Virus record (IMG/VR): IMGVR_UViG_3300017963_000262 | Location: 1-64,000 of that record | Length of the DNA: 64,000 nucleotides | From: a virus | Direction: 5' to 3' (one strand) | Shown here: positions 19,349-63,772 of the stretch, in pieces | Position numbering within the stretch: the first letter of the stretch is position 1 | Layout: each line of letters begins with the position of its first letter | The notes under the pieces: generated by a model | Database searches by the model: none | Seen by the model: the letters and a program-made list of their open reading frames with translations, nothing else | What the model was told of the DNA's origin: nothing | Program-made: the position numbers and the translations under genes

Positions 19349-19378
19349 TGGGGTACATCCCCAATATTATTTGTTAAT
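19349..19378 (-). promoter_or_regulatory. late-promoter motif copy 1
   Basis: minus strand reads AATTAACAAATAATATTGGGGAT; ~35 nt upstream of ATG 19335. Confidence 0.5.
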
Positions 19379-19785
19379 TATAGAGTCAACAAACTAAGCC
19401 TATAGCTTACATTTGGCTCTAAACCCCCGATATAATTAATGTTTACAATTTGGTTGTTCTGCGACCAAGAAATAACTGGAGGTTGTTCAGCAAAAACTAA
19501 GTTATTTGAGGTAATTACAGTTCTAACAACAAGAATACCTTGCAGTCTATTAGCCAGCGTTGAGCTAAAACTTACAGTATTTAGTGGTTGACCGTTATCT
19601 CCAGTAGTAAACTCAATTTCTTTAATTTCTTGAGAAATATTGGTAAAATCTAAATTTCCAGCTAAAGCACTTCTAACTTGCTCATGGAAGGAGTTAATGA
19701 TAAACGCCATTTTACGAACAAGAGGTTGATCTTCTTTGGCAAAATCTTCAACTGTAAGTCTTTTCAGATCAGGTATTCTAGCCAC
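19378..19785 (-). CDS. virion protein
   Basis: 135 aa, 3-nt gap to upstream 1363-aa gene. Confidence 0.4.
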   Translation of the reverse strand: MARIPDLKRLTVEDFAKEDQPLVRKMAFIINSFHEQVRSALAGNLDFTNISQEIKEIEFTTGDNGQPLNTVSFSSTLANRLQGILVVRTVITSNNLVFAEQPPVISWSQNNQIVNINYIGGLEPNVSYRLSLLTL

Positions 19786-19787
19786 AA

Positions 19788-22700
19788 TTACTCCCTGTAA
19801 GCCCTAGATGAAATTGGTCTAAGAGTATAAGAAATACCAAAAATGCCCCACTTTTCTCTAGCAGAATTGTGCTCAAATTGACATTGAATAAATCTACAAC
19901 GTTGTTTTGAACGAGGAATGTAAGTTCTTAAAGGAACTCCACTAAATCCTCCACCCCAATTTTGTTCTGACCATAAGAACGATCCCCAATCACCTTTTCC
20001 TGATTTGAAAAAAGGAACAGATTCCACTCCGGGACTAAGATCGGATTTATAACCAACATCACCAGTGGTGAAAGTCGCATTTTCAAACATAACCGTACCT
20101 TCTCGAACTTGCTTTAATGCTGAAGGATCTCCAAAAGTTTCTGGAGCATACAATACGGTAGAAACGATTCCTTTAAATAAAGTAATATCGCCTTGAATAA
20201 AATTTAAAGAATATTGAACTTCAATATCAGGATTATTTACTTCTGAGTTTGTAATTAGAACTTCAAATTCAGTTTCACCAGTTGATTGTAGATAATTAGA
20301 ATACAATGTTCCTGCATCTAAATTTAATTTATCAACGATTGCGTTGAAACCATCTTGGGTTCCTTCTAACGTAGTCGGATATGTATTTAATGTTGCCTCA
20401 AAATCATTTGCAACAATAGATGGATCATTGTCTAATTTAATTGCTAACAACTCTAGTTTTCCTCTAATATCATCTCCAGCAACAGCTTCTAGTGAAGATA
20501 AGAAGTCTCCACTACCTTGGGTGGTAACATTAATATTAAATCCATTACCTAAACCATTAGATAGGCTATCAAAAGGATCTGTAGTTTCACCGTTACGGAT
20601 TGTTCTAGCAGTAAATGATGTTGCCAAAGTTGTATAACTTACAATAAAATCTTGAGTTACGGTTTTTATTGTGTTTTGAGTTTTATTAGCTAATCCGGCT
20701 AATGTTGAAATTCCAGAAACGTCTATTCTGATTTGCGTTGATCCAATTAGATCAGTAAACACTGTTTCATCTAAAACTGGCAAATTATCGAAAGCATCAA
20801 AAAATACTGCATATTTTTGAGCATCTGACGCAGAATAAACAAAGAAATATTTAGAATGTAAATCATTTGGAACAGAACCAGTATATGATCCAAAATCTAT
20901 AGTAAATTCTTCAGCAGAACCAGTAAATGGATCTAGATCAAGTTTTCTCAACAATTGATTAAATTGGGTAATAGTTAATCTTTGAGTTTGAACAACAGAA
21001 TCACCAGTTTCGGCAACATTTGCTTGAGATAAAGTCAGAGTTGTTCCATCTACAGAATTAGCTGCCAACTGTAAAAGAAAATCTCTATCAGCGTAATCAG
21101 TTCTGTCAAATAATTTTCTTTCTCTTTCAATAAAATTTTCGTCAGTGGGTCCTAGATAAAGTTTATCATCACCACCATTAACTACACCACAAGTTTTTCT
21201 AAGCAATAATCTGGTCCAAGTATCTTCGGCTGTATTATAACGATAAGCTTGGGTAGCTACATCGTCAGTAGTAACTGAAGGTAGCCACAAAGTATAAGAT
21301 CTATCAGTTTCATAGCTTACACCAAAAGAAGAATACTCAAAATTATAGTTAGCACTAGTTAAAACTTGAATTACATTATCTAGTCGTTTAGAAATAATGT
21401 CAACACCTGTATCAGAAATTACAGCAACACCTTGATTTGTCAAACAGTATATTTGGTTATTAAGAACAACAGCAGTATCAGGAGCGATGATTTTAGTTGA
21501 AGCGTCAAATAAGTCAACCGTGAAAACACCGTTCAATCCTGTCAATCTGTAAATACCATCTTGTTTAAGAATAAATAGACTTTCTCTTAGTGCCAGTATC
21601 CTAGAAATTCCCTGATCTTCTGGACCAATATCAATAAAATTAAGTAAAGGTACTGCTTCAGGTTGTTGCAACTTAGAATACATTATTCTGTTTGGTTTAA
21701 TTTCAGCTTCAGCAAGAACTGGACTAGCTTCAGGTGCCGGAGGAAGAGGAGGATTAAATTGTTGTCCAGTAAGAGCACTATCTGCGGTTAGAGAAAAACT
21801 ATCTGTTCCAATATCTCGAACTTCCAATAGAATTTGTCCGGGAATATCATTAGGTCCAGAAATATAGAAAGCATTAACTACTTCGCTAGTGTTTTTATTT
21901 ATAATGTTAACCAGAGATCTTGCGGTTTCATCAATTTGTTGTGCTGGAGTAGGAGCAGCAGACAATAAAACATCGTTATTTGCAGAATCTTCTCCATCTC
22001 CTTGCGTAGTAACTGTAATTGAGATTCCATTTCCAACAGGAGAAGTTACGCTATCGGCAGCGTCATCAGTGTTCCCATTATTAGTATTTGTGATCGTTAA
22101 GTCTTCTCCAGAAGCATATCCTACTGAAAAATCTCCAGCAGAATCTTGTTCAAAAATAGAATTTGCTGTAGCTTCAGCTAACTCGGTTGTGTTAGTTACA
22201 GTTCTACCAACACTAACTTTAAATCCAACTCGCCCATCGACCTCTGCATTCCCTGCAGGGTCTAAGTTTGCCGGAGTATTTATTTGATATTCAAAACCTT
22301 GTTCGATTGTTTCAATTACCTCGATATCTGTAAGATCAAAGGCATTTGTTTCAATTTCAAGAAACTCGTTCGTTGCGGTGTATTGAACATCGTAATCATT
22401 AAACACATTATTTGTTGTTAAAGCTGAAGCTGCAGCAGAAGCAACATCGGCAAGAGTTCCAGCAGCACTAATATCAGCTTTTACGCTTATAAGAGTTGAT
22501 AGTTCTGTATTTTGAGGATTGCTTCCCGGATCATCAGTTGTTCCAGTAGCATCGAACCAAACATAGTAACCTCTAGATGTTGGTGTATATAATACAACAT
22601 AATCCCCATCTAAATCTCCGGGAACAGTTCCAACATAATTAGTAAAGTCTAAAGTTTGTGTAGTAAGCGTACTATCATACCAAACATAGTAACGTCTAGT

Positions 22701-26248: not shown

Positions 26249-27565
26249 TTAGACAGTTGTGGTTATAGCTCTAAATTTAATGTCTCCAGACACAAATCCA
26301 GCTTCATCATTTGAAGTATATTGAATCTGTCCTGCAGAAGTTATGCTAAAATTTACTCCAGAATTATCACCTGTAGCACTTACAGACATATCCCAATCGG
26401 CACCTTTTTGAACACCACGAAGAGTAAATACTTCAAAGGTATCGGCAGTAGCATCTTTTTCTACAGAAACTAAAGCTTCAAAACTTCTTACAGTAGCGTT
26501 AGCAAAAGCAAATCCGGTTACATCAGTTGGAGCAGCTACGTTATTTGCCATAGCAAAGGTAGTTTCTGAGATATCTCCAGCAGAAGCTCCAGTATCTACA
26601 GCGGCAATTTCATCATCAACATATTTTTTAGTGGCAGCGTCTTGATCTGCAGTTGGATCAACAACGTTTACAATTTTGCTAGTTGAAACATCAACATCTG
26701 TTGCTGGGTTTAATGTAATATTTCCAGAACCAGAAGTTAATTGTAGACCGTCACTACTAACTAATTGTTTTGCGTGAACTTGAGTAAAGTTTGTAGACGC
26801 AGAACCTAAATCTCTAGTGTTATCGGTGTCCGGTAGAATATCAACAGAAGCAACTAGACTGTTTGTCCAATCTAATTTTGTACTTCCACCAGCGTTTAAG
26901 CTGTGTCCGGTAATACTAATAACGGCATTACCATTTGATGCATTGTTAATAGTATTTACATATAATTGGGCAAATCCTTGACCATTAGCACCGATATTTC
27001 TTGAACCACCAACATCGGGCAATAAGTTTTGGTTAATTGCTGTTGGAGAAGTTAAGTTGCTCAAAGTTTGGTTAGCAGCACTAACATCATCAGCGTCAAG
27101 AGTGACAATACCAGTTTGACCGTTAACAGAAAGAACTTCGTCACCAGCCTTAAGTAAAACATAAGCACTACCATCATAAATATATGAAGCGGCACCAGAG
27201 GTAATATTAGGGTCAGCAGAAGCATCAGTTACTCGAACAACATCACCTTCCTGAACCTCACCATCTCCAGAACCAATAGTAAGAGCGTCTCTAGCAGTAA
27301 TATCAGCAGCAGTAAATACTTCAGTAATAGCAATAGCTGGAACAACAGAACTTAATAATTTTCCGTTAGCATCAAGACCAGCATAACCATTTGCTTGATC
27401 TTTATTAGCTAAAAGTTCAACGCCAGTTAAAGTGTTACTTGCACTATCAATTGTTTTATTTGTTAATGTCTGGGTAGCAGTATTAGTTGTTACTGTATCA
27501 GAATTGACTGATGCTGTTCCAGTTACCTCTACTCCATTTTTAAATTTATGTGGTACGTTAGCCAT
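26249..27565 (-). CDS. tail fibre protein
   Basis: 438 aa; TQTLTNKTIDSASNTLTGVE fibre repeat; C-terminal domain paralogous to 31696-32172. Confidence 0.55.
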   Translation of the reverse strand: MANVPHKFKNGVEVTGTASVNSDTVTTNTATQTLTNKTIDSASNTLTGVELLANKDQANGYAGLDANGKLLSSVVPAIAITEVFTAADITARDALTIGSGDGEVQEGDVVRVTDASADPNITSGAASYIYDGSAYVLLKAGDEVLSVNGQTGIVTLDADDVSAANQTLSNLTSPTAINQNLLPDVGGSRNIGANGQGFAQLYVNTINNASNGNAVISITGHSLNAGGSTKLDWTNSLVASVDILPDTDNTRDLGSASTNFTQVHAKQLVSSDGLQLTSGSGNITLNPATDVDVSTSKIVNVVDPTADQDAATKKYVDDEIAAVDTGASAGDISETTFAMANNVAAPTDVTGFAFANATVRSFEALVSVEKDATADTFEVFTLRGVQKGADWDMSVSATGDNSGVNFSITSAGQIQYTSNDEAGFVSGDIKFRAITTTV

Positions 27566-28613: not shown

Positions 28614-31600
28614 TATTTAATTCTCCTTGCCCAAAGTTTAGGACTAGTTTCACTTCCAGTAATACCGCCAGTAAAATCAGAATCTTCCAAAATTACAGCA
28701 ACATTAGTGTTACCAGTTGCAACTTGAACTATGTAATCTGTGTTTTCGGTAATAGTTATTTCAGTTTTATTTGAAAGCATTACTGCAATTTCTTCATTAT
28801 TTGCTAAGCTATGATACAAAGTTGATCCAGTGAGCGATACTGCTGCGGAATTTGTATCGTCGTAAACCCTAACATTAGTAGTTCCAGCAATAGAACCACC
28901 AGTACCATTGTTCATTCGTAAAAGTACAGAATATCCGATCTCCCAAGTTCCGGGAGTTAAAGTTAATGATTCAGTTGAATCAACATAAGTATTTGCAGTT
29001 GAAGTTGTTGGTCTAGATTCAAGAGCAACTTCTAAATATTCGCTGTTTGGATTTAACACACCGTATGAAGAAAAATCTGGAAGCGAAGCGATTGTCATGT
29101 ATGTTAATGATTCACTACCTCTAACTATATAGTCGGCATCCGCTGTTGAATCAATAGTTGCAGTTATTAAATCTCCTTTTTCGCAAAACAAAATTTTGTC
29201 AACACTTACTGGACCGTCTGTTGGGCCAGATCTAGTTAAAAGACCAGCGACTCCTACTCCATTTTGTCTAATAGAGACGGTAACTCGCTCATCGGTTACA
29301 ACCGAAGCATAATTAACGCCAAGATTAACTTGATAATATCCATCTTTAGGAATAACAAATCTATTATTTGCTGAATCAAATCCATTGTGAGTATCAAACA
29401 AACTATCATCAAATCCAATATCCGTTGCTGCGGTACTAGTCACAGTTTGGTCAGAATTTAAGTGCATTTCGACTCTAACCGTTCTTTGTGTTAGCTCGTT
29501 GTTGGAAATTACAACTGGTGTATTTGGTACTGAATATGAAAGCGATGAAAAACTATTATCAGTAGTTTGAGTTTGTAAAGTTCCAGAATAATTTCTATAG
29601 TTAGATCTAAATGTTCCGTTTGAAAAAACTTCACATCTATAAATTAAAGATGTATCTGTAACACAAACATTAAATCTATTTACTTCGGGAATTGCCCAAT
29701 CAGGAATCACTCCTGCTGCTGAGGTCGCTGTAGATAAGGATGCGTGAGTCAAAGCTGTTTCTGATTGTATAGTTACTTGATTTCCTACTCTTCGTACAGA
29801 GATAGTTCCTCCAGTATAATCTCCGCTACCAGTAAGATCAATAATTTCAGATCTTTCATAGGTTGCCGGAATTAAATTAATCGGACCAACACGAACATTA
29901 TCAAAATCAAAGAAAAATCCATTAAGAGTAGATACAGCAAAATGAAAAATTAGACGATAATTTTTTGAATCCGTAGTTTGAAATTCTCCCACAAATCTTC
30001 TAGATGGATCTCCATGAGCTTGAATATCACCGTCTTCGTCATTAGTAACAGATCCCAATAATGTTGCGTTGTCTATGTCATAAACAAAAACTTTTAAAAA
30101 ACCAGATTCATAATCACTTATTAATTTGTAATCAAATGATACTTGTAATTTAGATTCAGTATCGGCAGTGTCAATTTCAAAATCTGTACTAAATCCTTCA
30201 CCTTGAGGATCGCCAAATCCAGCACTTACTGAAGCTCTAAAAAAGTAATCTCCTCGCAAATCACTTAAATTAATTGGTGATAAAGAAAAAGCTCCGGGAC
30301 TACCACCAGTACCATCAATAGGAGCAGAACCAGAAGCGTCATCATAAGTATTCCAGCCAGTTGTTGCATTATTTTCGGCATCGGGATTTGTTATGTAGTT
30401 AATACCGCCCTGACCAGAACCAGATTGGATTGGATTAAAAGCAGAACCATCGTCTAATACTAATGAATCCAAATCAGTATCATAAGCAATCGTTCCTTCT
30501 TTTCTAGTTAAAGCTGCTAAATTTGCTGTAGTGTTAGAAGGTAACGTAATTCTATTATTATCGGAAGCTGTTCCTCCATCGATATCTTTGTTAGTTAATT
30601 GTTGTTGAAAATCTTCTAAAACAAAATTATCTGGAGTAGCAGTATCAGGAATAGTTACAACCTGTTGATTTCCTGTATTTCTAGTAAAACTGTCTGTACT
30701 TGCTGTATCAAGATTGTTTGAACTATCAGCCAAATCTTTGTTTGTTAAAGCTTGAGAACTAGAAACGTCAGCAACTTCAACTTCAGAACCTAAAGTCCCA
30801 AGTTTAAATTTAGAAGCAAGGGCATCTTCATATACCAAAGAACCGTCTATTCCAGTTCTTTCAACAGTTAAACCAGCGCCTTCAGAAGAAGCATCATTTC
30901 CGTTATTGTTTACAGTGATGTTAGTATCTTCGACATCAAGAGTTGCTGTATTTAAAGTTGTGGTTGTGCCATTAACTGTAAGATTTCCTCCTACGGTTAA
31001 GTCGTTAACTCCGGTAACATTATTTGAATCATCAATAGCAATTCCTGTAGCTTGAACGTTATTTGTATCAACACCATCAGTTTTAACTAAAATATTATCA
31101 GCATGTGTTCCGGGACCATCAAGTTTGCTAGATTCAGCAGTATCTAATCTACCAGCAACTTCTTCAAACCCAGCTTGAGCATCAGTCGCAGTTAGAGATG
31201 ATGTTGCTGGATTTAATGTTACATCACTAGCGTCATTTAAAACTGTATTGTTGCCTGTGGCATCAGTACCATCAATAGTTTTATTTTCTAAAGTTTGTGC
31301 ATCAGTATCGCCTACAACAGTTCCACCGGGAACCGCGTTACCAGAAACCACACCACCAAGACCATCACGAAGTAGAAACTTTCCAGCGTCAGCAGCTTGA
31401 GTCTTAAGAGACGGTAAATCAATATCTTGCAAAGTGTTATCATCGCCATCAATCGTTTTATTTGTTAAAGTGTCAGTTGTTTGTCTACCAACAAGAGTGT
31501 CATCAGCATCAGGAAGGTTGAGTGTTCTATCGGCAGTTTGTGCAGATTTTAAAGTTGTTCTTGTTGCTGTAGTTGCTGTGGGATCAACTTCAACGCTAAG

Positions 31601-32184: not shown

Positions 32185-32217
32185 ATTTAAAGTATGGCTC
32201 CATCTTTATTTGTTAAT
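32185..32217 (-). promoter_or_regulatory. late-promoter motif copy 4
   Basis: minus reads AATTAACAAATAAAGATGGAGCC; ~30 nt upstream of TTG 32172. Confidence 0.55.
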
Positions 32218-32226
32218 TTGGATTCT

Positions 32227-32254
32227 TGACATTAATAGATTTATCGGTTATTAT
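32227..32254 (+). promoter_or_regulatory. sigma70-type promoter (TTGACA-17-TATTAT)
   Basis: TTGACA 32227-32232, TATTAT 32249-32254; predicted TSS coincides with ATG 32261 (leaderless). Confidence 0.5.
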
Positions 32255-32260
32255 AGATCA

Positions 32261-34156: not shown

Positions 34157-34210
34157 GTGGTGGAAAAAACAATTTGAATATCATTATAAAAAATTTGGAG
34201 TATGGTACTA

Positions 34211-34851: not shown

Positions 34852-35390
34852 AAAAATGTTATAGTTGTGACATATTCAAAGATAAATCTGAGTTTGGTAA
34901 GCATAATCAGAAGAAAGATGGATTAGATCCTAACTGTAAAGCGTGTAGAAGTGCTAAGGCTAAGAAGTATTATCGAGATAATGCCGAAAAGATTAAAGCT
35001 GCTAGACAAGAATATTATCAAAATAACAAAGAAAAATGTATTAAGTCTAATTTGGCTTGGCAAAGAAAAAATGAGAAAAATAACCCAGAGTACAAATTGG
35101 CCCGAAGATTAAGAAATCGTTTATATTATGCTTTACAGAAAAAGTATTGGAAAAAGAATACCCATTTTTCAGAATATATCGGTTGCACTAAAAGTGAGCT
35201 AGTTAAACACTTAGAAGATCAATTTGTTGAGGGTATGACTTGGGATAACTATGGTGAATGGCATATAGATCATATTATTCCATTAAGTTCAGCAACTTCT
35301 GAAAAACAAATATATAAATTATGCCACTATACAAATCTTCAACCATTATGGGCATCAGATAATATAAAAAAAGGGAATCACATTGCATGA
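34848..35390 (+). CDS. HNH homing-endonuclease-like protein
   Basis: 180 aa; Cys cluster CKACRS; HIDHIIPLS...NLQPLWASDNIKKGNH HNH motif. Confidence 0.55.
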   Translation: MKKCYSCDIFKDKSEFGKHNQKKDGLDPNCKACRSAKAKKYYRDNAEKIKAARQEYYQNNKEKCIKSNLAWQRKNEKNNPEYKLARRLRNRLYYALQKKYWKKNTHFSEYIGCTKSELVKHLEDQFVEGMTWDNYGEWHIDHIIPLSSATSEKQIYKLCHYTNLQPLWASDNIKKGNHIA

Positions 35391-35395
35391 TTCCC

Positions 35396-35423
35396 ACAAA
35401 ATAAAAGGTTCAGAACGAACCTT
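35396..35423 (-). terminator. rho-independent terminator after major capsid gene
   Basis: AAGGTTC-agaac-GAACCTT stem-loop; minus strand reads hairpin then TTTATTTTGTG; 20 nt downstream of capsid stop. Confidence 0.5.
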
Positions 35424-35442
35424 CTAGATAAATTGAATAATA

Positions 35443-36821: not shown

Positions 36822-36853
36822 GGGCAATACCCCATACAACATTATTTGTTAAA
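36822..36853 (-). promoter_or_regulatory. late-promoter motif copy 7 (capsid promoter)
   Basis: minus reads TTTAACAAATAATGTTGTATGGGG; directly downstream of the terminator hairpin. Confidence 0.5.
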
Positions 36854-36860: not shown

Positions 36861-36900
36861 ATAAAAAATAGGCACTTATGAAAAAAAAGTTATAAGTGCC
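36861..36900 (-). terminator. rho-independent terminator/attenuator between scaffold and capsid genes
   Basis: GGCACTTAT-12 nt loop-ATAAGTGCC perfect 9-bp stem; minus reads hairpin then TATTTTTTAT. Confidence 0.55.
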
Positions 36901-37929: not shown

Positions 37930-38023
37930 AATATCTCCTAAATGTTAATATCCCTTATAGGGGTAATTGGTTAATTAGGCTCTCCACCATTGGAGCTACC
38001 TTAGAGTATATCTCTATAACTTT

Positions 38024-38053
38024 ATTTGTTAATTCTTTTGTAATATTGGGATC
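38024..38053 (-). promoter_or_regulatory. late-promoter motif copy 2
   Basis: minus reads AATTAACAAATAAAGTTATAGAGATATAC; ~95 nt upstream of scaffold ATG. Confidence 0.5.
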
Positions 38054-45363: not shown

Positions 45364-45398
45364 GAGTTAATAATATAGCTCCAATCTTATTTGTTAAT
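45364..45398 (-). promoter_or_regulatory. late-promoter motif copy 3
   Basis: minus reads GATTAACAAATAAGATTGGAGC; overlaps the terminase stop codon; ~40 nt upstream of portal ATG. Confidence 0.5.
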
Positions 45399-47597: not shown

Positions 47598-47632
47598 TGC
47601 CTCTTGTCATATCTCTAACCTTATTTGTTAAT
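47598..47632 (-). promoter_or_regulatory. late-promoter motif copy 5
   Basis: minus reads TATTAACAAATAAGGTTAGAGATATGAC; ~90 nt upstream of ATG 47528. Confidence 0.5.
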
Positions 47633-47663
47633 ATGGCATAATTCTTGCTATTTGTCAAGTTTT

Positions 47664-47693
47664 TTGACACTTGATTTATAAAAAAAGTATGTT
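47664..47693 (+). promoter_or_regulatory. sigma70-type promoter (TTGACA-18-TATGTT)
   Basis: TTGACA 47664-47669; TATGTT 47688-47693; SD AGGAGA then ATG 47718. Confidence 0.4.
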
Positions 47694-49224: not shown

Positions 49225-49361
49225 ATTTAGCATTGGTGTCAATCTTTTAGGCAGTTTTATTTGGTTCTTTAATTATATTACTTTAGGTTTGACATTGGCA
49301 GCGGCTATTGGTATTCTACAATTGTTAATTGCTGCATTTTTAATTGTAAATGAGGTAAATA

Positions 49362-53301: not shown

Positions 53302-53346
53302 GTATAAAACAGGTGTCGTTAGGCGTTTAGTTGATAAGGGTATTAA

Positions 53347-55649: not shown

Positions 55650-55911
55650 CGATAATAAAAGAAAAGATATTTTTCTTAGTAAAGAAGATGGTAATGCGTT
55701 TGATGCAATTGTTCTTGAATCAATTGATTGTGCTGGAGATTTACAATATGCAATGGCGATTATGTTTAAAGAATATATTGAAAGAAACGGCTTGAATTAT
55801 CAACATTGCAATGATATAATGGGAGCATTAGCTGGGGCACAAATAGAATTTTATAGACGTACAGTAGCTCCTTATGAGGATCAGAAGATTGAAGAAAACG
55901 GTGATATTTGA
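55636..55911 (+). CDS. hypothetical protein
   Basis: 91 aa. Confidence 0.35.
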   Translation: MPYVDDNKRKDIFLSKEDGNAFDAIVLESIDCAGDLQYAMAIMFKEYIERNGLNYQHCNDIMGALAGAQIEFYRRTVAPYEDQKIEENGDI

Positions 55912-56036
55912 ATGTGACGAATTACCTGATGAGATAGAGGTTGTTTTTCATAAAAGCAGATTAAAATCTCTCCAAGGTGGAGTTTATACTCAGTATGTAA
56001 AACATGTTGTTTTTACCAAAGAAAGGGAATATGTAA

Positions 56037-56183
56037 ATGAGCACAAGCAGAGCAAAACAAATTGCACAAAAAAGAAAGACAAAAACTAAAAAATCAGGAA
56101 ATGGTGCCAAGACTAATTACGCAAAACGTAAACGAATGAAAAAAGGTTCAACGAAGCACTTTACTGGTGGGAAAAAACGATAA
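56037..56183 (+). CDS. small highly basic protein (candidate, below ORF-track cutoff)
   Basis: 48 aa MSTSRAKQIAQKRKTKTKK...; alternative to overlapping ORF 55874-56089. Confidence 0.25.
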   Translation: MSTSRAKQIAQKRKTKTKKSGNGAKTNYAKRKRMKKGSTKHFTGGKKR

Positions 56184-56216
56184 TGGAAGACTTTCCTTGT
56201 CCTGAGTGGGAAGATT

Positions 56217-56471
56217 ATGAAGAAATTAATAACTAAAGAAAGACTGTGTACTTTAGCAACAATAGCTTACCACTGTTTGTTTTTAAGTGGTGCCAGTTTT
56301 TATGTTGCTGAATTTCAAAAAACCAGAGATACTATCGTTAAACAAGTTGATCGCGTTGAGAAAAAAGCTGATGAATTAAAGAAAACTGGAGAAAGTATAA
56401 ATAGCTCAATTAAATCTGTTGAATCAAAGTTAGATAAAGTTAAACGAACCTGTGAAAAGTTGAGATTTTAA
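56217..56471 (+). CDS. hypothetical membrane/coiled-coil protein
   Basis: 84 aa. Confidence 0.35.
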   Translation: MKKLITKERLCTLATIAYHCLFLSGASFYVAEFQKTRDTIVKQVDRVEKKADELKKTGESINSSIKSVESKLDKVKRTCEKLRF

Positions 56472-56686
56472 TGTTAGATAAAAAGCGCATTATGGAAGTT
56501 ATGGTGGCTTATGGAAAGCAAGTCGGCTACCCTGATAAGATTGGACCAAAACAATTTATACAGGGACATCTAAATAACTGTTTCAAAGTCTTGATGATGA
56601 AGAAACTTGTAAAACCAGAGCACTATAACTCATATCGCGCAGCGGCAATTGAAGAATATAAAAAATGGTGGATGAATAACCGATGA
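56471..56686 (+). CDS. hypothetical protein
   Basis: 71 aa. Confidence 0.35.
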   Translation: MLDKKRIMEVMVAYGKQVGYPDKIGPKQFIQGHLNNCFKVLMMKKLVKPEHYNSYRAAAIEEYKKWWMNNR

Positions 56687-56979
56687 AGCAGGGCGACAAA
56701 GTACATCTCAAAGGTCGAGAAGAGGTTACTGGAGTTATTGAAAAAACTAAATTTGACCACATGTGGGGAATTAATTACACACAACACTATGTTAAATACG
56801 ATAAAGATGACTTAATTCCTCCAGCCGATTGGCACGAAGAAGATGATTTGGTATTAATTGAACCTTTACCTAAAGGTAATAATACTTATAAACATCCTGT
56901 TTGTGAATGTGGAGTAAGTAAAGTAATGCATAATGGTAGGCATAGTGATTATTGTCCGTTATATAAGGAGTATAAATAA
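56683..56979 (+). CDS. hypothetical Cys/His protein
   Basis: 98 aa; CECG...HNGRHSDYC. Confidence 0.35.
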   Translation: MKQGDKVHLKGREEVTGVIEKTKFDHMWGINYTQHYVKYDKDDLIPPADWHEEDDLVLIEPLPKGNNTYKHPVCECGVSKVMHNGRHSDYCPLYKEYK

Positions 56980-57230
56980 TGGGTGAATTAAAATTATATG
57001 AAGAGCCAGCCGGAACCAACGAAGTTATAATTGATGAGCCTGAGTTTGGTGATGGTGACGATGGTGGAGAAGGCGAAGGATTGGATGCAATTAACATTCA
57101 ATTTGTAACTAATGGTGTCATTGTAACATTCTCTCTACTTGAAGGTGAAGAGCACAAAGAAGTTTATTATACACTAGATGAAGCTTTACAAAGAATCAGT
57201 CAAAGCGTAGGAGCATATTGTGAAGAGTAG
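56979..57230 (+). CDS. small acidic protein
   Basis: 83 aa; GDGDDGGEGEG. Confidence 0.35.
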   Translation: MGELKLYEEPAGTNEVIIDEPEFGDGDDGGEGEGLDAINIQFVTNGVIVTFSLLEGEEHKEVYYTLDEALQRISQSVGAYCEE

Positions 57231-57504
57231 AAAATTGTATCCTAAAAATATAACAAAGTCTTTTCGTAAGTTTTCTGGAGAATTATCTATTCAAGTTGAT
57301 GGTAAAAGATGGATTGATGTTAAACCTTCAGAAAAAGCTGGTCCACAAGTTATTGATGAATTTATTAAAGCGAGAAATACTGATAGACTGGAGTACGTTG
57401 AGATTAATGAAAATCAAGAAATTGTTGATTTAAAAATTGATAAATACAAAAATGCAGATAAATCTGTGGTTGATAAAGTTAGAAAGATATATAGACATGG
57501 CTAA
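57220..57504 (+). CDS. hypothetical protein
   Basis: 94 aa. Confidence 0.35.
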   Translation: MKSRKLYPKNITKSFRKFSGELSIQVDGKRWIDVKPSEKAGPQVIDEFIKARNTDRLEYVEINENQEIVDLKIDKYKNADKSVVDKVRKIYRHG

Positions 57505-58258
57505 GATTGCATTAACATCAGATCTACATTACGGCTGTACCGGAAATTCTGCAAATAAAATACAGAAAATGTTTAATCGTTTGAATAATCAGGATTTTGA
57601 TGTTTTAATCTTAGCTGGGGACCTAGCCTCACATACACAATATCACTACAAAAGATGTTTAGAAACAGCGCGTCAGTGCATACCAGACAAGCCTATTCTG
57701 ACAGTTCGAGGCAACCATGATTTGTGGGATGGTTTACACAAAAAAGATAAAAAGTCACAGAGACGAATGTTATATCAAATATATGAAGAACATGAGCAAT
57801 TATACCGAGACAATAACATACAACATCTAGATACGCCATTTAAGCTCGATGATGTTACTATTTTTGGATTTGATGGATGGTATCATAAACCGGACCCCAA
57901 AACTAACGACAGTCATTGGATGCCTCTTATGCACGAAAGTTGTCGCACGTTAACATATTTATCAAATAATAGTTTTAAAGATTTTGATAGAGTTTTAGAT
58001 CAATACGATAAACAAAAAAATGATATTAATGTTTTAGTTAGTCACTTCCCATCAATTGCAATAAAAAATGATAGACATGAATTTAATGCGTCACCGCGTT
58101 TTCTTCCAGAAATAAAAGAACGGTTTGATGTTGTTTGTTATGGACATTCGCATAAATTTATGAATATAACCGAAGATGGTACACGTTTTTGTAACTCTGG
58201 TTCTGACTATGGTAAACCTTCAGCAATGATTATTAATACTAAATTGTCCTCTGTCTGA
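57437..58258 (+). CDS. calcineurin-like metallophosphoesterase
   Basis: 273 aa; SDLHYG (DxH), ILAGDLA (GDxxD), RGNHD motifs. Confidence 0.5.
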   Translation: MINTKMQINLWLIKLERYIDMAKIALTSDLHYGCTGNSANKIQKMFNRLNNQDFDVLILAGDLASHTQYHYKRCLETARQCIPDKPILTVRGNHDLWDGLHKKDKKSQRRMLYQIYEEHEQLYRDNNIQHLDTPFKLDDVTIFGFDGWYHKPDPKTNDSHWMPLMHESCRTLTYLSNNSFKDFDRVLDQYDKQKNDINVLVSHFPSIAIKNDRHEFNASPRFLPEIKERFDVVCYGHSHKFMNITEDGTRFCNSGSDYGKPSAMIINTKLSSV

Positions 58259-58346
58259 CTGGCTGGACTTGCACCAGCAGCTTTCCGCTAATTTTTTTGA
58301 GGGTCTAACGCTTGATCCTCAAGCTTTCCCTCGGTCTTAGTAGTCG

Positions 58347-58523
58347 CCATTAAAATAACAGATATTTCAGTCCACTTAAATAAAAAAATTGAACTAATAT
58401 AATAATCATTAATCCACTCATTAATTTAGGTCCATACCAGCCATCGATAAAAGAACTCAATAATAAAAAGGGCCAAAAAAGAATGCCTAAAAACGCAAAA
58501 ATAATTAACTCAAAAAAATACAT
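58347..58523 (-). CDS. small 2-TM membrane protein (candidate, below ORF-track cutoff)
   Basis: 58 aa MYFFELIIFAFLGILFWPFLLLSSFIDGWYGPKLMSGLMIIILVQFFYLSGLKYLLF; TAATG coupled to the upstream gene stop. Confidence 0.35.
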
Positions 58524-58765
58524 TATATCTCACCAAGTTCTTTTAGAGTTCCCCTAGCATGAAATTTTGCAGCTTCGCTCTTAGCAAAAGATGCTATAGT
58601 TTTTAGCGTTTCAACGGCTTTTATATAATCAGCCTTTATTTCGGCCAATTCTGCAGAGTGAGCCTTCTCTCGTCGCTCTAAAGCCCTCTCGCATTCCTGC
58701 TCCATAGATCTTCTACCATCCTCAAAAGCTTGGTCTAGGGACTCGTCTCGCTCATCTGGAAACAT
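58523..58765 (-). CDS. hypothetical acidic helical protein
   Basis: 80 aa. Confidence 0.35.
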   Translation of the reverse strand: MFPDERDESLDQAFEDGRRSMEQECERALERREKAHSAELAEIKADYIKAVETLKTIASFAKSEAAKFHARGTLKELGEI

Positions 58766-59169
58766 TATATCTCCTTAATACTCATACCAAAGCCACCATA
58801 ATACCCATTATGTTCATTATGTGCAGCAAATGTAATAGAAGACTTATTGCCTTGAATTTCTAAAAAACAAGTTTCATGCTCGACCCAACCTTCTTCGTCA
58901 CTTTCATCCTTGTAACCTTTTTCCATAATGTGAACTAAAGTTTGTCCGACTAGATCTTCAATATTATCATCAAGAGTTAAATACCGATGTTCGCAACAAG
59001 ATTGACCACCGTCAAAAATTCTAATAGTCACACCATCCTCAAACTCAATATCAACGAAATCCTCATCAAACTTTGCAGATTTAATTACTCGACCAGCGTA
59101 TTTATCTGAACGTTCTGGTGAGCCGCCACCTAATATGTGGAGCATAGCTCCCATTCCCAATTGACTCAT
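58765..59169 (-). CDS. hypothetical protein
   Basis: 134 aa; Cys/His-containing (CCEHRY). Confidence 0.4.
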   Translation of the reverse strand: MSQLGMGAMLHILGGGSPERSDKYAGRVIKSAKFDEDFVDIEFEDGVTIRIFDGGQSCCEHRYLTLDDNIEDLVGQTLVHIMEKGYKDESDEEGWVEHETCFLEIQGNKSSITFAAHNEHNGYYGGFGMSIKEI

Positions 59170-59378
59170 CGTTCAATCCTTGTCAAAATAAGTTTATTTG
59201 CATCCAATTGTTTTCTTGATGCTCTGCGAAAAGCTAAAGCTTCTTTTGAGATACCATTAGGACTAACTGAAATTTCTCTTCCACCAAGACTATATTCTTT
59301 TCGCTTTCCTTTTTCTTCTTTAACTAGAATGTATTCTACATGATATGATTGTTGTTTCATTTTTTTTCCTTTATGCAA
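59166..59378 (-). CDS. hypothetical basic protein
   Basis: 70 aa, overlapping coupling both ends. Confidence 0.3.
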   Translation of the reverse strand: MHKGKKMKQQSYHVEYILVKEEKGKRKEYSLGGREISVSPNGISKEALAFRRASRKQLDANKLILTRIER

Positions 59379-59587
59379 CTAAATAATCTTTCAGAATTAA
59401 TTATTTCAGATCCACCAATTTTAAATATTCGTCCTTCATTCTTTGCTTTACGAACAACGCAATCGCTATACCATTTTTGGCAAGAAAGAACATCTTTATC
59501 ACTATACTGCTTTGACGAGCCAATATAATTATTGCTATTAGTAACTGGAGTTCCGCATAACATGGCAATTGCAACTATTAATTCCAT
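59357..59587 (-). CDS. small secreted Cys-containing protein
   Basis: 76 aa; N-terminal hydrophobic segment. Confidence 0.35.
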   Translation of the reverse strand: MELIVAIAMLCGTPVTNSNNYIGSSKQYSDKDVLSCQKWYSDCVVRKAKNEGRIFKIGGSEIINSERLFSCIKEKK

Positions 59588-59930
59588 TATAATCTCCCTT
59601 GATCTAACAGATCACAAAAAGTAGCAAAGTCTGGCCTTACCATTGCAATACCACCGTCATTTGTTTTAATATAAGGCTTCTTAGCGTATTCAATAATCGG
59701 AGTAGGAGCAACATTGGTTTCCATGCTCTCTTTTTTAAAACTGCGTTCCCAACTAGAATATCCTTGAAAATTGGTACAATATGAATTGTATTTAATGTCA
59801 ACAAGAAGTAAATCCCTTAATTTTAAAAATAATTGATACTTTTGTTCCAAAGTATAGCTTGGAGAAACTGGTTCTGGTTTAAAGTCGTTAATTCCAAGAA
59901 TAACTTCAATTGGTGGCAACACTAATGTAC
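59587..59930 (-). CDS. hypothetical protein (N-terminus uncertain)
   Basis: ORF-track 59587-60024 overlaps the tRNA; true start probably internal. Confidence 0.3.
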
Positions 59931-59942
59931 TCCTACGATAAA

Positions 59943-60020
59943 TGGCGGTGCTAGAGGGATTTGAACCCTCGATCTCTGCCGTGACAGGGCAGCGTCCACT
60001 CCAGACTGGACCGTAGCACC
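59943..60020 (-). tRNA. tRNA-Asp (anticodon GUC)
   Basis: minus reads GGTGCTA..GTCC-AGTCTGGAGT-GGAC..CTGCC-CTGTCAC-GGCAG..GAGGG-TTCAAAT-CCCTC-TAGCACC-G-CCA; cloverleaf folds by hand; anticodon loop CU-GUC-AC; encoded CCA. Confidence 0.7.
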
Positions 60021-60187
60021 ACAATCAGGATCTCATCATTTTTTATATTTGTCAAGAAGTTTTTTTTCATCTTGCTTTTCTTTTTTCTTTATTGAGCGAC
60101 GAACAACTTTATCTTGGCGATTTCCTCGCTTCCTATCAATTGCACAATATTGACATTGACACCCTACCCTGTACTTTCCTTGATGCT

Positions 60188-60724
60188 TCACCAGAGTAAC
60201 TCCGCTATAGGATGCAATTCTTTAATTTCTAGATTGTAACAATCATTTCTAACAGTGTAATTATTGCGACTATCAAATTGTCCCTTCTTCATAAACTGCG
60301 CTTTGTTCATATATTCTTCAGGACTGATGTATCCTAATATCCAACCCTTAAGAAACTTATCATTTTCTTTATACACTCTAGTAAACACATAAAAATCACA
60401 ATCCTGCTTACCAGCAATATAATCAACCAATGAACATTCATAATGTAACTCAGGAGGTCTGCTGTAGGTGGTCGCCTTTGTTTTAATTTCTAATCTTTGG
60501 TCCTCAAACAAGATATCATGGTTCACTGTATTCATTGACGTTGCATGAGTTCCTAGACTGGTGATAACGCCAGCCTCACCATAGCATCCCGGATAAACTC
60601 CAGCGCCTTTCATAAAAGAACGCTTAGTTGGTGCAGGGGCACTCTCTATCATTAGCTTGGCCAATTCTTCACAGCGTCCGGTGACATTAAATTCTAAATA
60701 ATCAGTCTTTCCTTTTAACGACAA
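60188..60724 (-). CDS. hypothetical protein
   Basis: 178 aa. Confidence 0.4.
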   Translation of the reverse strand: MSLKGKTDYLEFNVTGRCEELAKLMIESAPAPTKRSFMKGAGVYPGCYGEAGVITSLGTHATSMNTVNHDILFEDQRLEIKTKATTYSRPPELHYECSLVDYIAGKQDCDFYVFTRVYKENDKFLKGWILGYISPEEYMNKAQFMKKGQFDSRNNYTVRNDCYNLEIKELHPIAELLW

Positions 60725-60911
60725 GTCCTATCCCCGGTTTAATAATTGAAGGGTCAGTTAATCCTCGGCTCATCTCAATGCCAACCACTTCCCAAAAATG
60801 TCCTTGATGATAAATAGTATCACCAACACTAATCGGTCTATCGCCTGACTCCATATCGAAAGTCAAAACAATTCCTCTTCCAGCTATATGATGTTCATCT
60901 CTGAATTTCAC
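60702..60911 (-). CDS. hypothetical protein
   Basis: 69 aa. Confidence 0.35.
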   Translation of the reverse strand: MKFRDEHHIAGRGIVLTFDMESGDRPISVGDTIYHQGHFWEVVGIEMSRGLTDPSIIKPGIGLVVKRKD

Positions 60912-61177
60912 TTACAACTCACTACTTTTCTTTTTAACTCTGTAGGAAATCGAAACCAACCATTTGAACGATACTTCACATTGTAACATTCACGCTTATC
61001 ACATACCGTCCTGTAACAGGTAGCTGGCATATACATCTCTAAAGTGTTGCTATATCTCATGCAAGTATATGGTTCACTGTGACTAAGAAGACATCTAGAT
61101 TCAAACTTCTCATATTCCTTGCCACGTTCAGTACATGCGGTAGCTGCGAGTAAAATTAATACCAACAAATATTTCAT
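60908..61177 (-). CDS. small Cys-rich lipoprotein
   Basis: 89 aa; lipobox LLAATAC; 8 Cys. Confidence 0.4.
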   Translation of the reverse strand: MKYLLVLILLAATACTERGKEYEKFESRCLLSHSEPYTCMRYSNTLEMYMPATCYRTVCDKRECYNVKYRSNGWFRFPTELKRKVVSCK

Positions 61178-61467
61178 AAAAATTCTCCTCTAAGATACCG
61201 TATCATCCATCTAACGCTAGGACGATTTTCGTCTATTTCCATCATACCATCACCACAACTATCAAGTCCAGCATATTCTTTATGCACTAAAGTATTGGGC
61301 TTTCCCAGCTCCTTACAGAGCTTGAGATACTCAATCTCCATTTGATCGTATTCTTCATCAGATATGGACTTAGCCAACTTCTTCTTGTACTTGTCACTAG
61401 GTTTATAGTATATAACCTTATGTTTCAGTATATCCCATGAAAGTTTATTAAACCTCTGAATCGACAT
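61174..61467 (-). CDS. hypothetical protein
   Basis: 97 aa. Confidence 0.35.
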   Translation of the reverse strand: MSIQRFNKLSWDILKHKVIYYKPSDKYKKKLAKSISDEEYDQMEIEYLKLCKELGKPNTLVHKEYAGLDSCGDGMMEIDENRPSVRWMIRYLRGEFL

Positions 61468-61729
61468 TAATATCGCTTATTGTGTAGATTTTTGGTTTGT
61501 AGTCCCATTCTCTTTTTTTCCAAGCAACATAGTTTTTATGATTTTCAACTATTTCGATCAATTTTCTCTTTGCCGCAAGTAAACCGTCAAATTCGTTGTC
61601 GATATAGTTACACCACTTTTCTCCCAGCTCTTCCTGAATGATATAGGTTTCTTTACCATTTCTATGAAGTCTGCTAATAATTCGGAATTTCTTGTCATAA
61701 TCAATTTCTTTATCTAATAAGTAACTCAT
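61448..61729 (-). CDS. hypothetical protein
   Basis: 93 aa; SD AAGGAGAAG. Confidence 0.4.
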   Translation of the reverse strand: MSYLLDKEIDYDKKFRIISRLHRNGKETYIIQEELGEKWCNYIDNEFDGLLAAKRKLIEIVENHKNYVAWKKREWDYKPKIYTISDINVDSEV

Positions 61730-61739
61730 ACTTCTCCTT

Positions 61740-62160
61740 AAGATCGGCCAGATAAGGTTTGCTCTGGGCTTGTAGTCCCAGACTCTCCTCTGCTGCTAGT
61801 TGGCGAGGCTCAACCAAGGGGCATCTCATCAATGCTTGCCTAACTTACCTGCTAGTCCGATGATAATATAAATGCTGGATCAGTACGTTCTATGCCAATC
61901 CCTGTCCAGCACACCTCTCTTCTGATAGTTTCCAAGAGGCTTATGGCAACCACCTGTACTAGATTCGGGACCGCTATCTCGATCTTATTCCTCTATCTAG
62001 GGTGGAGATCATCCTAAAAATAAAAACTGGGGATATAGGCTAGACGCGACTCTAGCATCAGCTCGTCGGGGCATGCTTCCCTGCGCTGGCGTTCAACTTA
62101 ATGGTCCATGTGTCTCCAGAGGATTCCCTCTTGCCTCCCACATCGCTATATCCAATATAT
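61740..62160. ncRNA. GC-richer structured non-coding element (candidate ncRNA or long structured leader)
   Basis: ~420 nt with no credible ORF and visibly higher G+C than surroundings; multiple stem-loops, e.g. CTGGG-cttgtagt-CCCAG, GGGACCGCTATCTCG. Confidence 0.3.
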
Positions 62161-62444
62161 TAGTTCTCTTTTTCATCTTTATCAATTTCGTGCATAAACA
62201 ACAATGCCAGTTGCCTAGCCAGTATGTTTTTTTCATTATTAGGGTGTCCCCACCAAGACTGTCCATGAACCCTACCATCATCACTAGTATAAGGACTAAA
62301 ATAATCATAGTATTTCCATCTGGCATGATATTCGTCAGTATAAGGATTGGGACTATCTTCTACGCACACTTTGTTAATAGCCCAACAAGAGTATTTATGA
62401 CTCATTGTATCTAACACAATAGCAGCTTCTAGATAGATGTTCAC
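62160..62444 (-). CDS. hypothetical protein
   Basis: 94 aa; His/Trp-rich (HARWKYYDYFSPYTSDDGRVHGQSWWGHPNNEKN). Confidence 0.4.
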   Translation of the reverse strand: MNIYLEAAIVLDTMSHKYSCWAINKVCVEDSPNPYTDEYHARWKYYDYFSPYTSDDGRVHGQSWWGHPNNEKNILARQLALLFMHEIDKDEKEN

Positions 62445-63739
62445 TCTAAACCTTTCATAATACCTTTAAATATAGGCTACCACACCTTTTATCTATTAGC
62501 AACCCATTTTTTAAAAAAAATATGAGACCGACTTCACCTCCAGATTGAAATAAAGTGACGTACCCTTTTTCAAAGGGAAAAATCTCTTATTTATAAGATA
62601 AACGGAAATATGGCTTAACTCATAGATTTATAAGCTTAGTTACATAAGATTCTAGTATTTTCAGGTATATACCAGTTTACAGTTACTTATAACAAAAAAA
62701 TGTTATATAATTTGCAAATTGTTAAGTATTTGAATTTAAAGGATTTCCATGAATTTTCTATCATATTTTACGTTTATGATAATCTATTAGGTTTATTTTT
62801 TAAGCATACGCTCTCTGACATAGTAGGGATATTTTCAACCCAAAAAAGGTATGTACCCCCCTACCCCCTATACATTTCACCTGAGCGTCTCATCCTGACA
62901 CAGGTACTCATCTTGCATCTGCAACATTCATGCCAACAAACTCTGGCATATTATTTGCTACTGCAAGAACTATACACAAAATATCATGGGACATAAGATG
63001 GTTTTATAGCAACCATAAGAAGATAATATATTGAATGAATATATCTCATCTTGAAACATGAGAACTATTAGATACCTCTATTATATCAATTTGAGTCATA
63101 TCCTGTCAAGAAAAAAATGTATCTTTTTGAAACAATTTTCTAAGTGCTTTATATTAGAGATGAAGTTAATAGATTGGAATGAAACTTGCAATATAAAATT
63201 GCATATATTCTTTACACTTTATACTTAATAGATTCTCAGGATGATATGATCTTAAATGCTTGAAATTGTTAAGTAATTAGCTATTTTACTTAGATTTATA
63301 ACATATTGAGATCATTAAAGAAAATACAGTGTTTCAGGATAGATCTATTATAGTCTCGAAATGAGTCAGTTAATAGATTGTTTCATATTGATATTTTCCT
63401 GAATACTTAAGAATATTTATTTGTCTTATTCTGAGATTTTAAACGCAAGCCATTATATAATTAAGACTAGTCGCCTTAAAAAATTAATAGAGTTTAGAGT
63501 CAACTCTAATAGATTCGTTCATGGTCAAGTGTTTCCTTAGACTTGATGCTGGCTATGTATCAAATTGGGACAGAAACGACAACTTTTATCTGTCTCAAAT
63601 TTTAGCGTTTAGTGTCTCTGAAGGCTTCAGTAAGCTCTCTTTGTCTCAGTTTTAAACGGTCCTTTCGGAGTCTCGTTTTGATACACAGTGTTGTGGTGCC
63701 CTTGTTTTTCAGACTATTAACAGCACAACTGTTTCAGTA

Positions 63740-63772
63740 AGAGACACTTCCCTTACACCTTTATTTGTTAAC
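63740..63772 (-). promoter_or_regulatory. late-promoter-like motif copy 6
   Basis: minus reads GTTAACAAATAAAGGTGTAAGGGAAG; points leftward into the 1.3 kb non-coding region. Confidence 0.4.

Follow-up and report, generated by a model that had tools for sequence, protein, structure and literature searches.

A putative single-element late promoter at the head of the virion-gene units of an ~85-kb environmental phage

The stretch of DNA analyzed here, 64,000 nucleotides (nt) that form positions 1 to 64,000 of the IMG/VR virus record IMGVR_UViG_3300017963_000262 and are called the window below, belongs to an ~85-kb phage in which a 10-base box, TTAACAAATA, precedes each virion-gene block. This box is very likely a late promoter of some kind, judging from its position, orientation and conservation, and we consider it probable that it is read by the host RNA polymerase (RNAP) together with a specificity factor encoded by the phage. 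It is a member of the class of single-element phage late promoters that possess no -35 element. We infer the use of the host RNAP as well as the existence and nature of the factor. What is notable in the system is its spread in an uncultured clade, the frequency of leaderless late genes, and the fact that no recognizable factor is found in a closed genome.

A repeated box heads seven minus-strand units

The core TTATTTGTTAA on the plus strand, which reads TTAACAAATAA on the transcribed minus strand, occurs in nine exact copies in the window, all of them in the same orientation. Dinucleotide-preserving shuffles predict 0.32 copies, and none of 100 shuffles gave nine. The relaxed core TTAACANNTA is equally one-sided, with 13 of 13 window matches on the minus strand. 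When the core is extended to the 16-nt pattern TTAACAAATAANNNTR, the sole matches in the window are seven regulatory sites (19367, 32206, 36842, 38022, 45387, 47621 and 63761), compared with 0.03 expected. Numbered from the start site predicted below, all seven copies carry A at -5 and T at -1, while at +1 five copies have G and the other two have A. The first-pass annotation of the window had listed seven co-oriented copies that align over a longer span up to a purine-rich start. The orientation, the longer span and the purine are all borne out; however, the true number of core copies is nine, those at 27456 and 31458 having been missed, and the copy placed at 38042 exists at 38022. The same annotation had noted a seven-base match to the T3 promoter (AATTAAC), which is present in three of the seven copies and not in the other four.

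The two additional core copies are located inside coding regions (Table 1). They do not have T at -1, unlike all seven regulatory copies, and are probably not promoters. The peptide T-L-T-N-K-T-I-D that they encode is common to two tail/fibre-like proteins, at residues ~32-39 in the product of the open reading frame (ORF) 26249-27565 and ~65-72 in that of ORF 28613-31666, and the DNA for this shared peptide is the promoter core over 11 nt. The latter protein, of 1017 amino acids (aa), holds two more LTNKD variants. A further box-like sequence, TTAACATTTA, was seen at 37939-37948 on the minus strand, 9 nt 5' of the ATG of the 338-aa gene and overlapping its GGAG ribosome-binding site; it may be a weak second promoter or a chance occurrence.

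The window consists of alternating plus-strand and minus-strand blocks. Nucleotide metabolism, NAD salvage, RNA repair and small ORFs without assigned function make up the plus-strand blocks, and the minus-strand blocks contain the virion genes (capsid, portal and large terminase) together with a block of small genes and a tRNA-Asp. Seven minus-strand units follow one another, and each is headed by one box (P1 to P7, Table 1); the gene caller merges these units into three contiguous minus-strand blocks. No box faces any plus-strand block of the window, and none was found in the 21 kb of the genome outside the window or in the early block of a sister phage. Among the gene names given in the first-pass annotation, capsid and portal were verified, and so was the large terminase, whereas scaffold, internal protein and fibre tip are positional labels for proteins without a family hit.

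P2 precedes the 158-aa gene, the first of a tail/fibre operon running from 32172 to 19378. P5 overlaps the terminase stop codon and heads the portal gene and the genes downstream of it, and P4 lies inside a small upstream ORF (37955-38185). P7 is separated from its unit by ~1.3 kb of ORF-poor DNA, in agreement with the earlier description of this copy as facing non-coding DNA. The stretch in question (62445-63760) has no convincing ORF and no Rfam match even at E <= 1, and its predicted fold is only slightly more stable than those of shuffles (z = -1.8 and -2.2); a non-coding RNA could be encoded there. A perfect sigma70 consensus promoter with TG (TTGACA-18-TATAAT) is present within it on the minus strand, at 63109-63080.

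Four of the seven predicted transcripts (19362, 36837, 38016-38017 and 63756) have a stem-loop at +1 or +2, with examples in GGGGAUGUACCCC, the hairpin that opens the P1 transcript, and GUAAGGGAagugUCUCUUAC; the one at the predicted start of the P3 transcript has a 7-bp stem. Two of these stem-loops are significant against shuffles (z = -2.4 and -3.0). They are weakly suggestive of stabilized primary 5' ends, where 5'-terminal hairpins may be stabilizing.

The box is conserved in environmental relatives

Relatives were collected by portal alignment, which gave four IMG/VR loci and 80 of 287 metagenome loci. The contigs reach 124 kb, and a large number are 70-86 kb long. Strand bias was computed from 87 sequences centred on the portal (86 loci and the window), using only non-redundant contexts. 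The core of the family is (A/T)TTAACA-NN-TA, with an NN of AA, AG, AC or TA that is specific to the clade, as in the variants AACAAATA, AACAAGTA, AACAACTA and AACATATA. The forms are strongly biased toward the strand of the virion genes: TAACAACTA by 104 to 15, TAACAAATA by 55 to 11, and TAACAAGTA by 29 to 3.

The box lies 5' of the portal gene in about 35 loci, in which identity over the portal N-terminus (150 aa) goes from 88% down to 54%. It is also found 126-191 nt 5' of the capsid ATG in 10 relatives, amid non-coding DNA that is otherwise unalignable, and the two nearest relatives (L001 and L002) have it 5' of the scaffold gene and of the fibre-tip gene. Orthologous box sites are kept at gene boundaries despite rearrangements, and the loci that carry the box span 31-48% GC. 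Sequence logos contain zero information upstream of about -16, and therefore no -35 element. They also display an A/T preference after the box and a T-A some 5-6 nt downstream.

The long distance to the capsid ATG implies a long capsid mRNA leader, which was observed in the window (36661-36837, minus strand) and in at least nine relatives (L070:18249-18402, L002:9866-10000, L063:4406-4579, L016:3745-3887, L086:3709-3870 and others). Short blocks recur in these leaders, namely GGAGTCT..AGTAAACC..GGAGCT and CATACCC..GGATTG, and the leader may hold a conserved element. RNAalifold on a MAFFT alignment of the capsid 5' untranslated regions of 10 relatives, an alignment of poor quality, gave no consensus structure.

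Beyond these loci, the 13-kb head region has no match in GenBank phage DNA. At the protein level, the only GenBank neighbours are a partial Silvanigrella phage (~30% identity) and distant T5-like terminases. Judging from the nearest capsid, portal and terminase hits, bacteria like Silvanigrella may be hosts of the window phage. The Silvanigrella phage record holds just two related 20-mers. In this nearest GenBank relative (L104, CP017838.1), two copies of the 21-mer CGTAACACTTATAGTTAAAAA are situated on the minus strand at 15742 and 29395, and their core, TAACA-CT-TA, resembles the box. IMG/VR loci anchored on RNR (L087-L099) are mostly non-collinear with the window phage because RNR is a mobile auxiliary gene, and rIIA, the 660-aa tail protein and the 178-aa protein gave no hits when used for walks in IMG/VR.

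Leaderless genes in relatives place the predicted start six nucleotides past the box

Between the end of TTAACANNTA and the first ATG to begin an ORF with 50 or more codons, the spacing shows a sharp maximum at exactly 5 nt. One count gave 12 such cases and a second gave 13, from at least 10 gene families, and there were zero cases at 1-4 nt. These cases include the portal genes of L017 (L017:244) and L035 (L035:1420) and 11 other sites, and no Shine-Dalgarno sequence is present in them. An ATG only 5 nt after the box leaves no room for a ribosome-binding site, and the mRNAs must therefore be leaderless. In that case +1 is the sixth nucleotide after the box, and the box itself occupies -15 to -6. 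Orthologues elsewhere, the window included, have starts led by a Shine-Dalgarno sequence 25-35 nt downstream of the box; for instance, the window portal gene has a 32-nt leader with GGTGGA, in contrast to its leaderless orthologues in L017 and L035.

Transferred to the window, this register puts the predicted +1 on the purine that follows the conserved T. The purine of GGAG or AGAG had been guessed as the start from the window alone, and the leaderless genes of the relatives lead independently to the same base.

A closed genome without a recognizable polymerase or specificity factor

The genome was assembled from the window and two contigs with overlaps that are 100% identical, to a total of ~85.3 kb. 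The contig L108 (64.8 kb, same phage) is identical to the window over positions 1-474 and extends 14.6 kb leftward, whereas L100, found by exact-protein look-up, is identical over 51448-64000 and extends 6.8 kb rightward. The added pieces are L108:1-14633 and L100:1-6831, which amount to ~21 kb outside the window, and the far ends of the two contigs overlap by 161 identical bases, closing the map. Many related contigs are 80-86 kb. Samples in which the phage occurs include JGI 3300017971 and ENA ERZ27256783. L108 was reached through homologs of RNR and the neighbouring ERF, as was L105, the sister phage of 83 kb.

Genes outside the window are of the replication, recombination, rII and anti-defence types. 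To the left are an Imm5-like protein, endonuclease VII, Pyr_excise, Gad2, a PD-(D/E)XK nuclease, ERF, a DnaB-like helicase, PolB, an exonuclease, a ClpP-like protease and small ORFs; to the right are Kyano_Gp96, HicA, WYL_2, GP88, rIIA, rIIB and an HNH protein. Gad2, the HicA toxin, the Imm5-like protein and WYL_2 are of the defence or anti-defence type. The largest ORFs in these parts encode PolB (828 aa), a rIIA-like protein (672 aa) and the DnaB-like protein (670 aa), and the largest one without annotation has 289 aa. The portal belongs to the P22/SU10 portal families, and most virion proteins of the phage match no PHROG.

No gene for a single- or multi-subunit RNAP was found in the closed genome by Pfam, PHROGs and ORF size, nor in the sister phage. 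Canonical RNAP catalytic motifs were absent from 1.4 Mb of family loci, where a regular-expression search for motifs A and B of single-subunit RNAPs returned none. A T7-like single-subunit RNAP encoded elsewhere in the genome, as had been suggested for the late genes, is accordingly not supported, and the host RNAP must therefore transcribe them. Moreover, five of the seven boxes are not accompanied by host -35 and -10 elements; a TTGACA-N17 promoter is adjacent only at 47621 and 63761, with the box downstream of its -10. A factor is therefore still required. The first-pass annotation had proposed that a complete genome with neither a phage RNAP nor a sigma factor, together with host -10/-35 elements at the late starts, would speak against its reading: neither a phage RNAP nor a sigma factor is recognizable in the closed genome, but the host elements are absent at most boxes.

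Several observations weigh against the reading in which a phage factor directs the host RNAP to the box. No recognizable sigma or other RNAP-binding protein was detected by Pfam and PHROGs in essentially all non-structural ORFs of the closed genome. Searches with phiEco32 gp36 and 7-11 gp47 against all ORFs (phmmer, jackhmmer and profile) gave best E-values of ~0.03-1 and no homolog, a negative that is weak because identity among the known members is only 15% (PMC8948821). The 177-aa ORF 48108-48641, picked as a candidate sigma for its 'MTYR...Y....N' likeness to the gp36 residues that read the -10 element, was rejected, as those residues are not conserved in its own homologs and its confident AlphaFold2 model (pLDDT 83) has no sigma fold. 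The hairpins at the predicted 5' ends are missing in three of the seven transcripts and are not conserved in relatives. Finally, closure of the genome rests on the 161-bp overlap, and sequence could be missing if this overlap is a repeat.

Phage sigmas of the gp36/gp47 type have only ~15% mutual identity (PMC8948821), and most virion proteins here have no PHROG; a factor diverged beyond recognition is therefore plausible. The T4 late machinery is not visible either: neither PHROGs nor Pfam gave a hit for gp55, gp33, gp45/sliding clamp or the clamp loader in the closed genome. In the comparison with phiEco32, no gp79 homolog is detectable in it. Gene clusters near the portal that are absent from the window and shared among distant relatives were also screened, and encode proteases, ATPases, a transferase and exonucleases, with no transcription factors among them. 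As for the 177-aa protein (plus strand), it is syntenic in close relatives and has eight database homologs; its invariant motifs include DFD, WNS and a C-terminal WWD. Its model consists of long helices and a beta-hairpin and has no significant match in the PDB.

Comparison with known phage promoter systems

The closest parallel in geometry is phiEco32 (Kuravirus). Its middle and late promoters consist of a single 9-bp element, tAATGTAtA, with the transcription start 6-8 bp downstream, and are read by gp36, a sigma that lacks region 4 (PMC8948821, PMC12276001). The two systems have in common a lone conserved element of 9-10 bp in the -10 region, the absence of a -35, and a start, predicted in the present case, that lies 6-8 bp downstream. 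In both phages the element stands before late (virion) operons and early genes are on host sigma70 promoters. The elements tAATGTAtA and TAACAAATA both begin with TAA and end with TA; the full sequences differ, and neither TAACAAATA nor TAACAACTA fits the phiEco32 consensus. The genomes are of similar size (77.6 kb against ~85 kb) and share a P22/SU10-family portal, a macro domain, the phrog_289 'GTP-binding domain', an exonuclease and a P-loop kinase. However, tblastn detects no similarity of portal and capsid of the window phage to Kuravirus proteins, the polymerase is PolB as opposed to a PolA-like enzyme in phiEco32, and promoter function is experimental for the Kuravirus and a prediction for the box.

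T4 late promoters possess an 8-bp box, TATAAATA, with its 5' base at -13 (-13 to -6) and no -35, which is read by gp55 (PMC2988020). The T4 box, used with gp33 and the sliding clamp gp45, and the present one (8 bp against 9-10 bp) both end at -6 and have no -35. Further similarities are A/T-rich DNA from the box to the start, a single box for each late unit, and late regions of tens of kb. Written as TA-AC-AAATA, the window box differs from the TA-T-AAATA of T4 solely in an inserted AC. The phage also has T4-like genes, namely rIIA/rIIB, RNA ligases 1 and 2 and genes of the endonuclease V/VII type. On the other hand, TTAACAACTA, the consensus of the family, is less similar to TATAAATA, the phage and T4 have unrelated virion genes, and the T4 consensus is matched neither by TAACAAATA in the window nor by TAACAACTA, TAACAAGTA and TAACATATA in relatives.

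Two other systems share parts of the box. Late promoters of Salmonella phage 7-11 (GTAAtg-N16-aCTA) are read by the sigma gp47 on host core, with a start 6-9 bp past aCTA (PMC8948821). The element aCTA is the 3' end of the commonest box of the family, TTAACA-ACTA; the 7-11 promoters are, however, bipartite with a -35-like element, whereas nothing is conserved upstream of -16 in the box family. The late promoter of AR9, of the phiKZ type, is A(-11)ACA-N6-U-A/G(+1) without a -35 (PMC5449584). An AACA core, the absence of a -35 and the preference for T(-1) and a purine at +1 are shared with the box. The AACA lies 8 nt from the T(-1)/+1 position here, at -13 to -10, compared with 6 nt in AR9, at -11 to -8. 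AR9 also uses a five-subunit phage RNAP and uracil-containing DNA, and no beta or beta' homologs were found in the 85-kb genome.

Alternative explanations

It is also conceivable, though unlikely, that the host holoenzyme, with a primary or an alternative sigma, reads the box directly and no phage subunit is involved, in which case timing would depend on a phage activator, on modification of RNAP or on DNA replication. Such a scheme would fit the failure to find a phage sigma, the TAAnnT hexamer formed by the box and its 3' flank in five of the seven window copies, and the fusion of two boxes to good TTGACA-N17 promoters; the NAD-salvage genes and the macro domain could serve ADP-ribosylation of RNAP. 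It fits poorly with the register of the core, since the essential -11A and -7T of sigma70 are misplaced in every frame compatible with a leaderless start at box+6, and with the five copies that have no -35. By the canonical test (TTGACA and TATAAT, 16-18 bp apart) the box is not a sigma70 promoter. The arrangement of TTAACA as a -35 with a -10 downstream was likewise tried and rejected: a TATAAT-like box 14-16 nt downstream is found at the portal promoter of several relatives and in two of the seven window copies but not in general, and the spacing is too short. No known host sigma has a consensus that matches the box, which counts against direct reading. Moreover, the box is kept across loci of 31-48% GC with a clade-specific NN, as expected of a co-evolving phage factor and not of one host sigma.

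A second possibility, which we regard as improbable, is that the box acts at the RNA level, as an endonuclease processing site or as the boundary of a 5' stabilizer in longer transcripts. Phage RNases with short sequence specificity do exist, such as T4 RegB, which acts at GGAG. Stable hairpins directly after the predicted 5' end in four of seven cases resemble those at processed or stabilized mRNA ends, and the two boxes just 3' of sigma70-type promoters would be transcribed. Against this, the 12.8-kb operon headed by the box at 32206 starts in a divergent region where the minus strand has neither a promoter nor a gene upstream, and the box at 36842 lies 3' of a strong terminator. The conserved sequence is upstream of the mature end, and the A/T-rich -5 to -1 followed by T(-1)R(+1) is promoter-like. 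In addition, the geometry of the box is that of the experimentally mapped promoters of phiEco32 and T4 (PMC8948821, PMC2988020).

There is very little to recommend a T7/T3/SP6-type promoter read by a single-subunit phage RNAP. Such promoters are phage-specific, have no -35 and start at a purine, as do the boxes; the ~16-nt conserved block of the window ends at a purine start, often GGAG, and among the three copies that share AATTAAC with T3 the one at 32206 has the identical 17-nt spacing to G. Yet no ORF of the closed genome, or of its sister, is able to be such an enzyme, and conservation is of the wrong extent. T7-type promoters are conserved over ~23 bp (-17 to +6), in contrast to 16 nt in the window and, family-wide, just the 10 nt of TTAACA-NN-TA from -15 to -6. 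That the box is instead a DNA-level signal, such as a T5-type strand-specific nick site or a replication or packaging signal, is hardly credible: its strictly one-stranded orientation and the distantly T5-like large terminase would suit this, but the sites keep fixed short distances to gene starts, exactly 5 nt for leaderless ATGs, every late unit is headed by one of them, and they persist at orthologous boundaries, a coupling that a nick or pac role does not predict.

Host-type promoters, terminators and neighbouring modules

Host-type promoters on the plus strand had been reported at four positions as canonical TTGACA-N17-TATAAT elements. Three of these were recovered as sigma70-type promoters, the one at 47664 with a spacer of 18, while the fourth, at 63857, is present in a weaker form (Table 1). 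The divergent control regions at 32195-32260 and 47610-47700 are very compact. At the former, box P2 and the -35 of the early promoter on the opposite strand (32226) stand back to back, 9 nt apart, and this pair (TGTCAAG and the box) is kept in L001 and L002.

Between the gene in scaffold position and the capsid gene, a terminator hairpin followed immediately by the motif had been described, and this holds: the hairpin at 36871-36900 has a folding energy of -11.2 kcal/mol (z = -5.9) and ends 18 nt 5' of box P3. With P3 and its flanking terminators, the capsid gene would be a self-contained transcription unit.

Two plus-strand modules accompany these features. An NAD/PRPP module (4015-7381) consists of a PRPP synthetase-like protein, NAPRTase/NAMPT and a macro domain, and an RNA-repair module (51284-55649) consists of an Rnl2-type ligase, a P-loop kinase and an Rnl1-type ligase fused to a metallophosphatase. 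Their content suggests counter-defence against attack on tRNA or NAD+.

Table 1. Putative late-promoter boxes, host-type promoters, terminators and coding look-alikes in the window. The +1 sites are predicted.
Feature	Position	Strand	Context
P7 box TTAACAAATAAAGGTG	63756..63771 (box 63771-63762; predicted +1 63756)	-	Heads unit 62444 to 58350 (small genes and tRNA-Asp)
P6 box TTAACAAATAAGGTTA	47616..47631 (predicted +1 47616)	-	Heads operon of 105-aa, 135-aa and large-terminase genes
P5 box TTAACAAATAAGATTG	45382..45397 (predicted +1 45382)	-	32 nt 5' of portal ATG
P4 box TTAACAAATAAAGTTA	38017..38032 (predicted +1 38017)	-	88 nt 5' of 338-aa gene (scaffold by position)
P3 box TTAACAAATAATGTTG	36837..36852 (predicted +1 36837)	-	177-nt leader, then major capsid gene
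P2 box TTAACAAATAAAGATG	32201..32216 (predicted +1 32201)	-	29 nt 5' of 158-aa gene
P1 box TTAACAAATAATATTG	19362..19377 (predicted +1 19362)	-	27 nt 5' of 536-aa gene, operon 19335 to 12709
Sigma70-type promoter TTGACA-17-TATATT	9595..9623	+	Inside nucleotide-metabolism block
Sigma70-type promoter TTGACA-17-TATTAT	32226..32254	+	For plus-strand block 32210-35390
Sigma70-type promoter TTGACA-18-TATGTT	47664..47693	+	For plus-strand block 47718-58258
Weaker host-type promoter TTGACT-17-TATAAC	63857..63885	+	Faces rII/anti-defence early block that runs past the window end
Sigma70-type promoter TTGACA-17-CATATT	47630..47658	-	-10 abuts box P6 (tandem host-type and late)
Sigma70-type promoter TTGACA-17-TAAAGT	63771..63799	-	-10 abuts box P7 (tandem host-type and late)
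Terminator-like hairpin with U-tract	36863..36900 (hairpin 36871-36900)	-	3' of 338-aa gene; 9-bp stem, 12-nt loop
Two tandem terminator hairpins with T-runs	35373..35426	-	Directly 3' of capsid gene
Coding look-alike of core	27456..27466	-	Within ORF 26249-27565 (PHROG minor tail protein); encodes TLTNKTID
Coding look-alike of core	31458..31468	-	Within 1017-aa ORF 28613-31666; encodes TLTNKTID

Proposed mechanism and implications

The distribution of the two promoter kinds, host sigma70-type ones for plus-strand blocks and boxes ahead of virion genes, upholds the earlier proposal of a switch from early host-type to late phage-specific transcription. In the mechanism that we favour, the host holoenzyme of the sigma70 type would transcribe early and middle plus-strand genes from promoters resembling TTGACA-N17-TATAAT. 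Among the proteins made from these genes would be a small phage specificity factor, which would then retarget the host RNAP core to the box TTAACAAATA at about -15 to -6, which is followed by A(-5), T(-1) and a purine(+1) and would act as a single element without a -35. In each of the seven units, transcription would begin 6 nt past the leading box. The capsid gene would have its own promoter set between terminators, and the terminase unit and the unit of small genes and tRNA, where a host-type promoter is fused to the box, may be expressed both early and late. By analogy with gp36 and gp55, the factor would most likely be a very divergent protein resembling sigma domain 2.

A bolder version may be put forward as a speculation that we ourselves rather doubt. 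Widespread environmental phages of ~80-86 kb might redirect the host RNAP to a -35-less TTAACA-NN-TA promoter by means of a new class of promoter-recognition subunit, unrelated to the sigma70, gp55 and gp36 families or diverged from them beyond recognition, that would be hidden among the small ORFs; leaderless late mRNAs would be frequent in such phages.

The seven promoters, with their predicted +1 sites and terminators, provide a testable map of late transcription for a clade without a cultured representative. The box is short, strictly oriented and kept in hundreds of relatives from metagenomes, and can therefore serve as a marker for late regulons and for true gene starts, leaderless ones included, when genomes of the whole group are annotated. 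The closed genome isolates the question of which small phage protein retargets the host RNAP. If this factor is a divergent sigma-2-like protein, the gp55/gp36 lineage would be extended; otherwise it would be a new kind of specificity factor.

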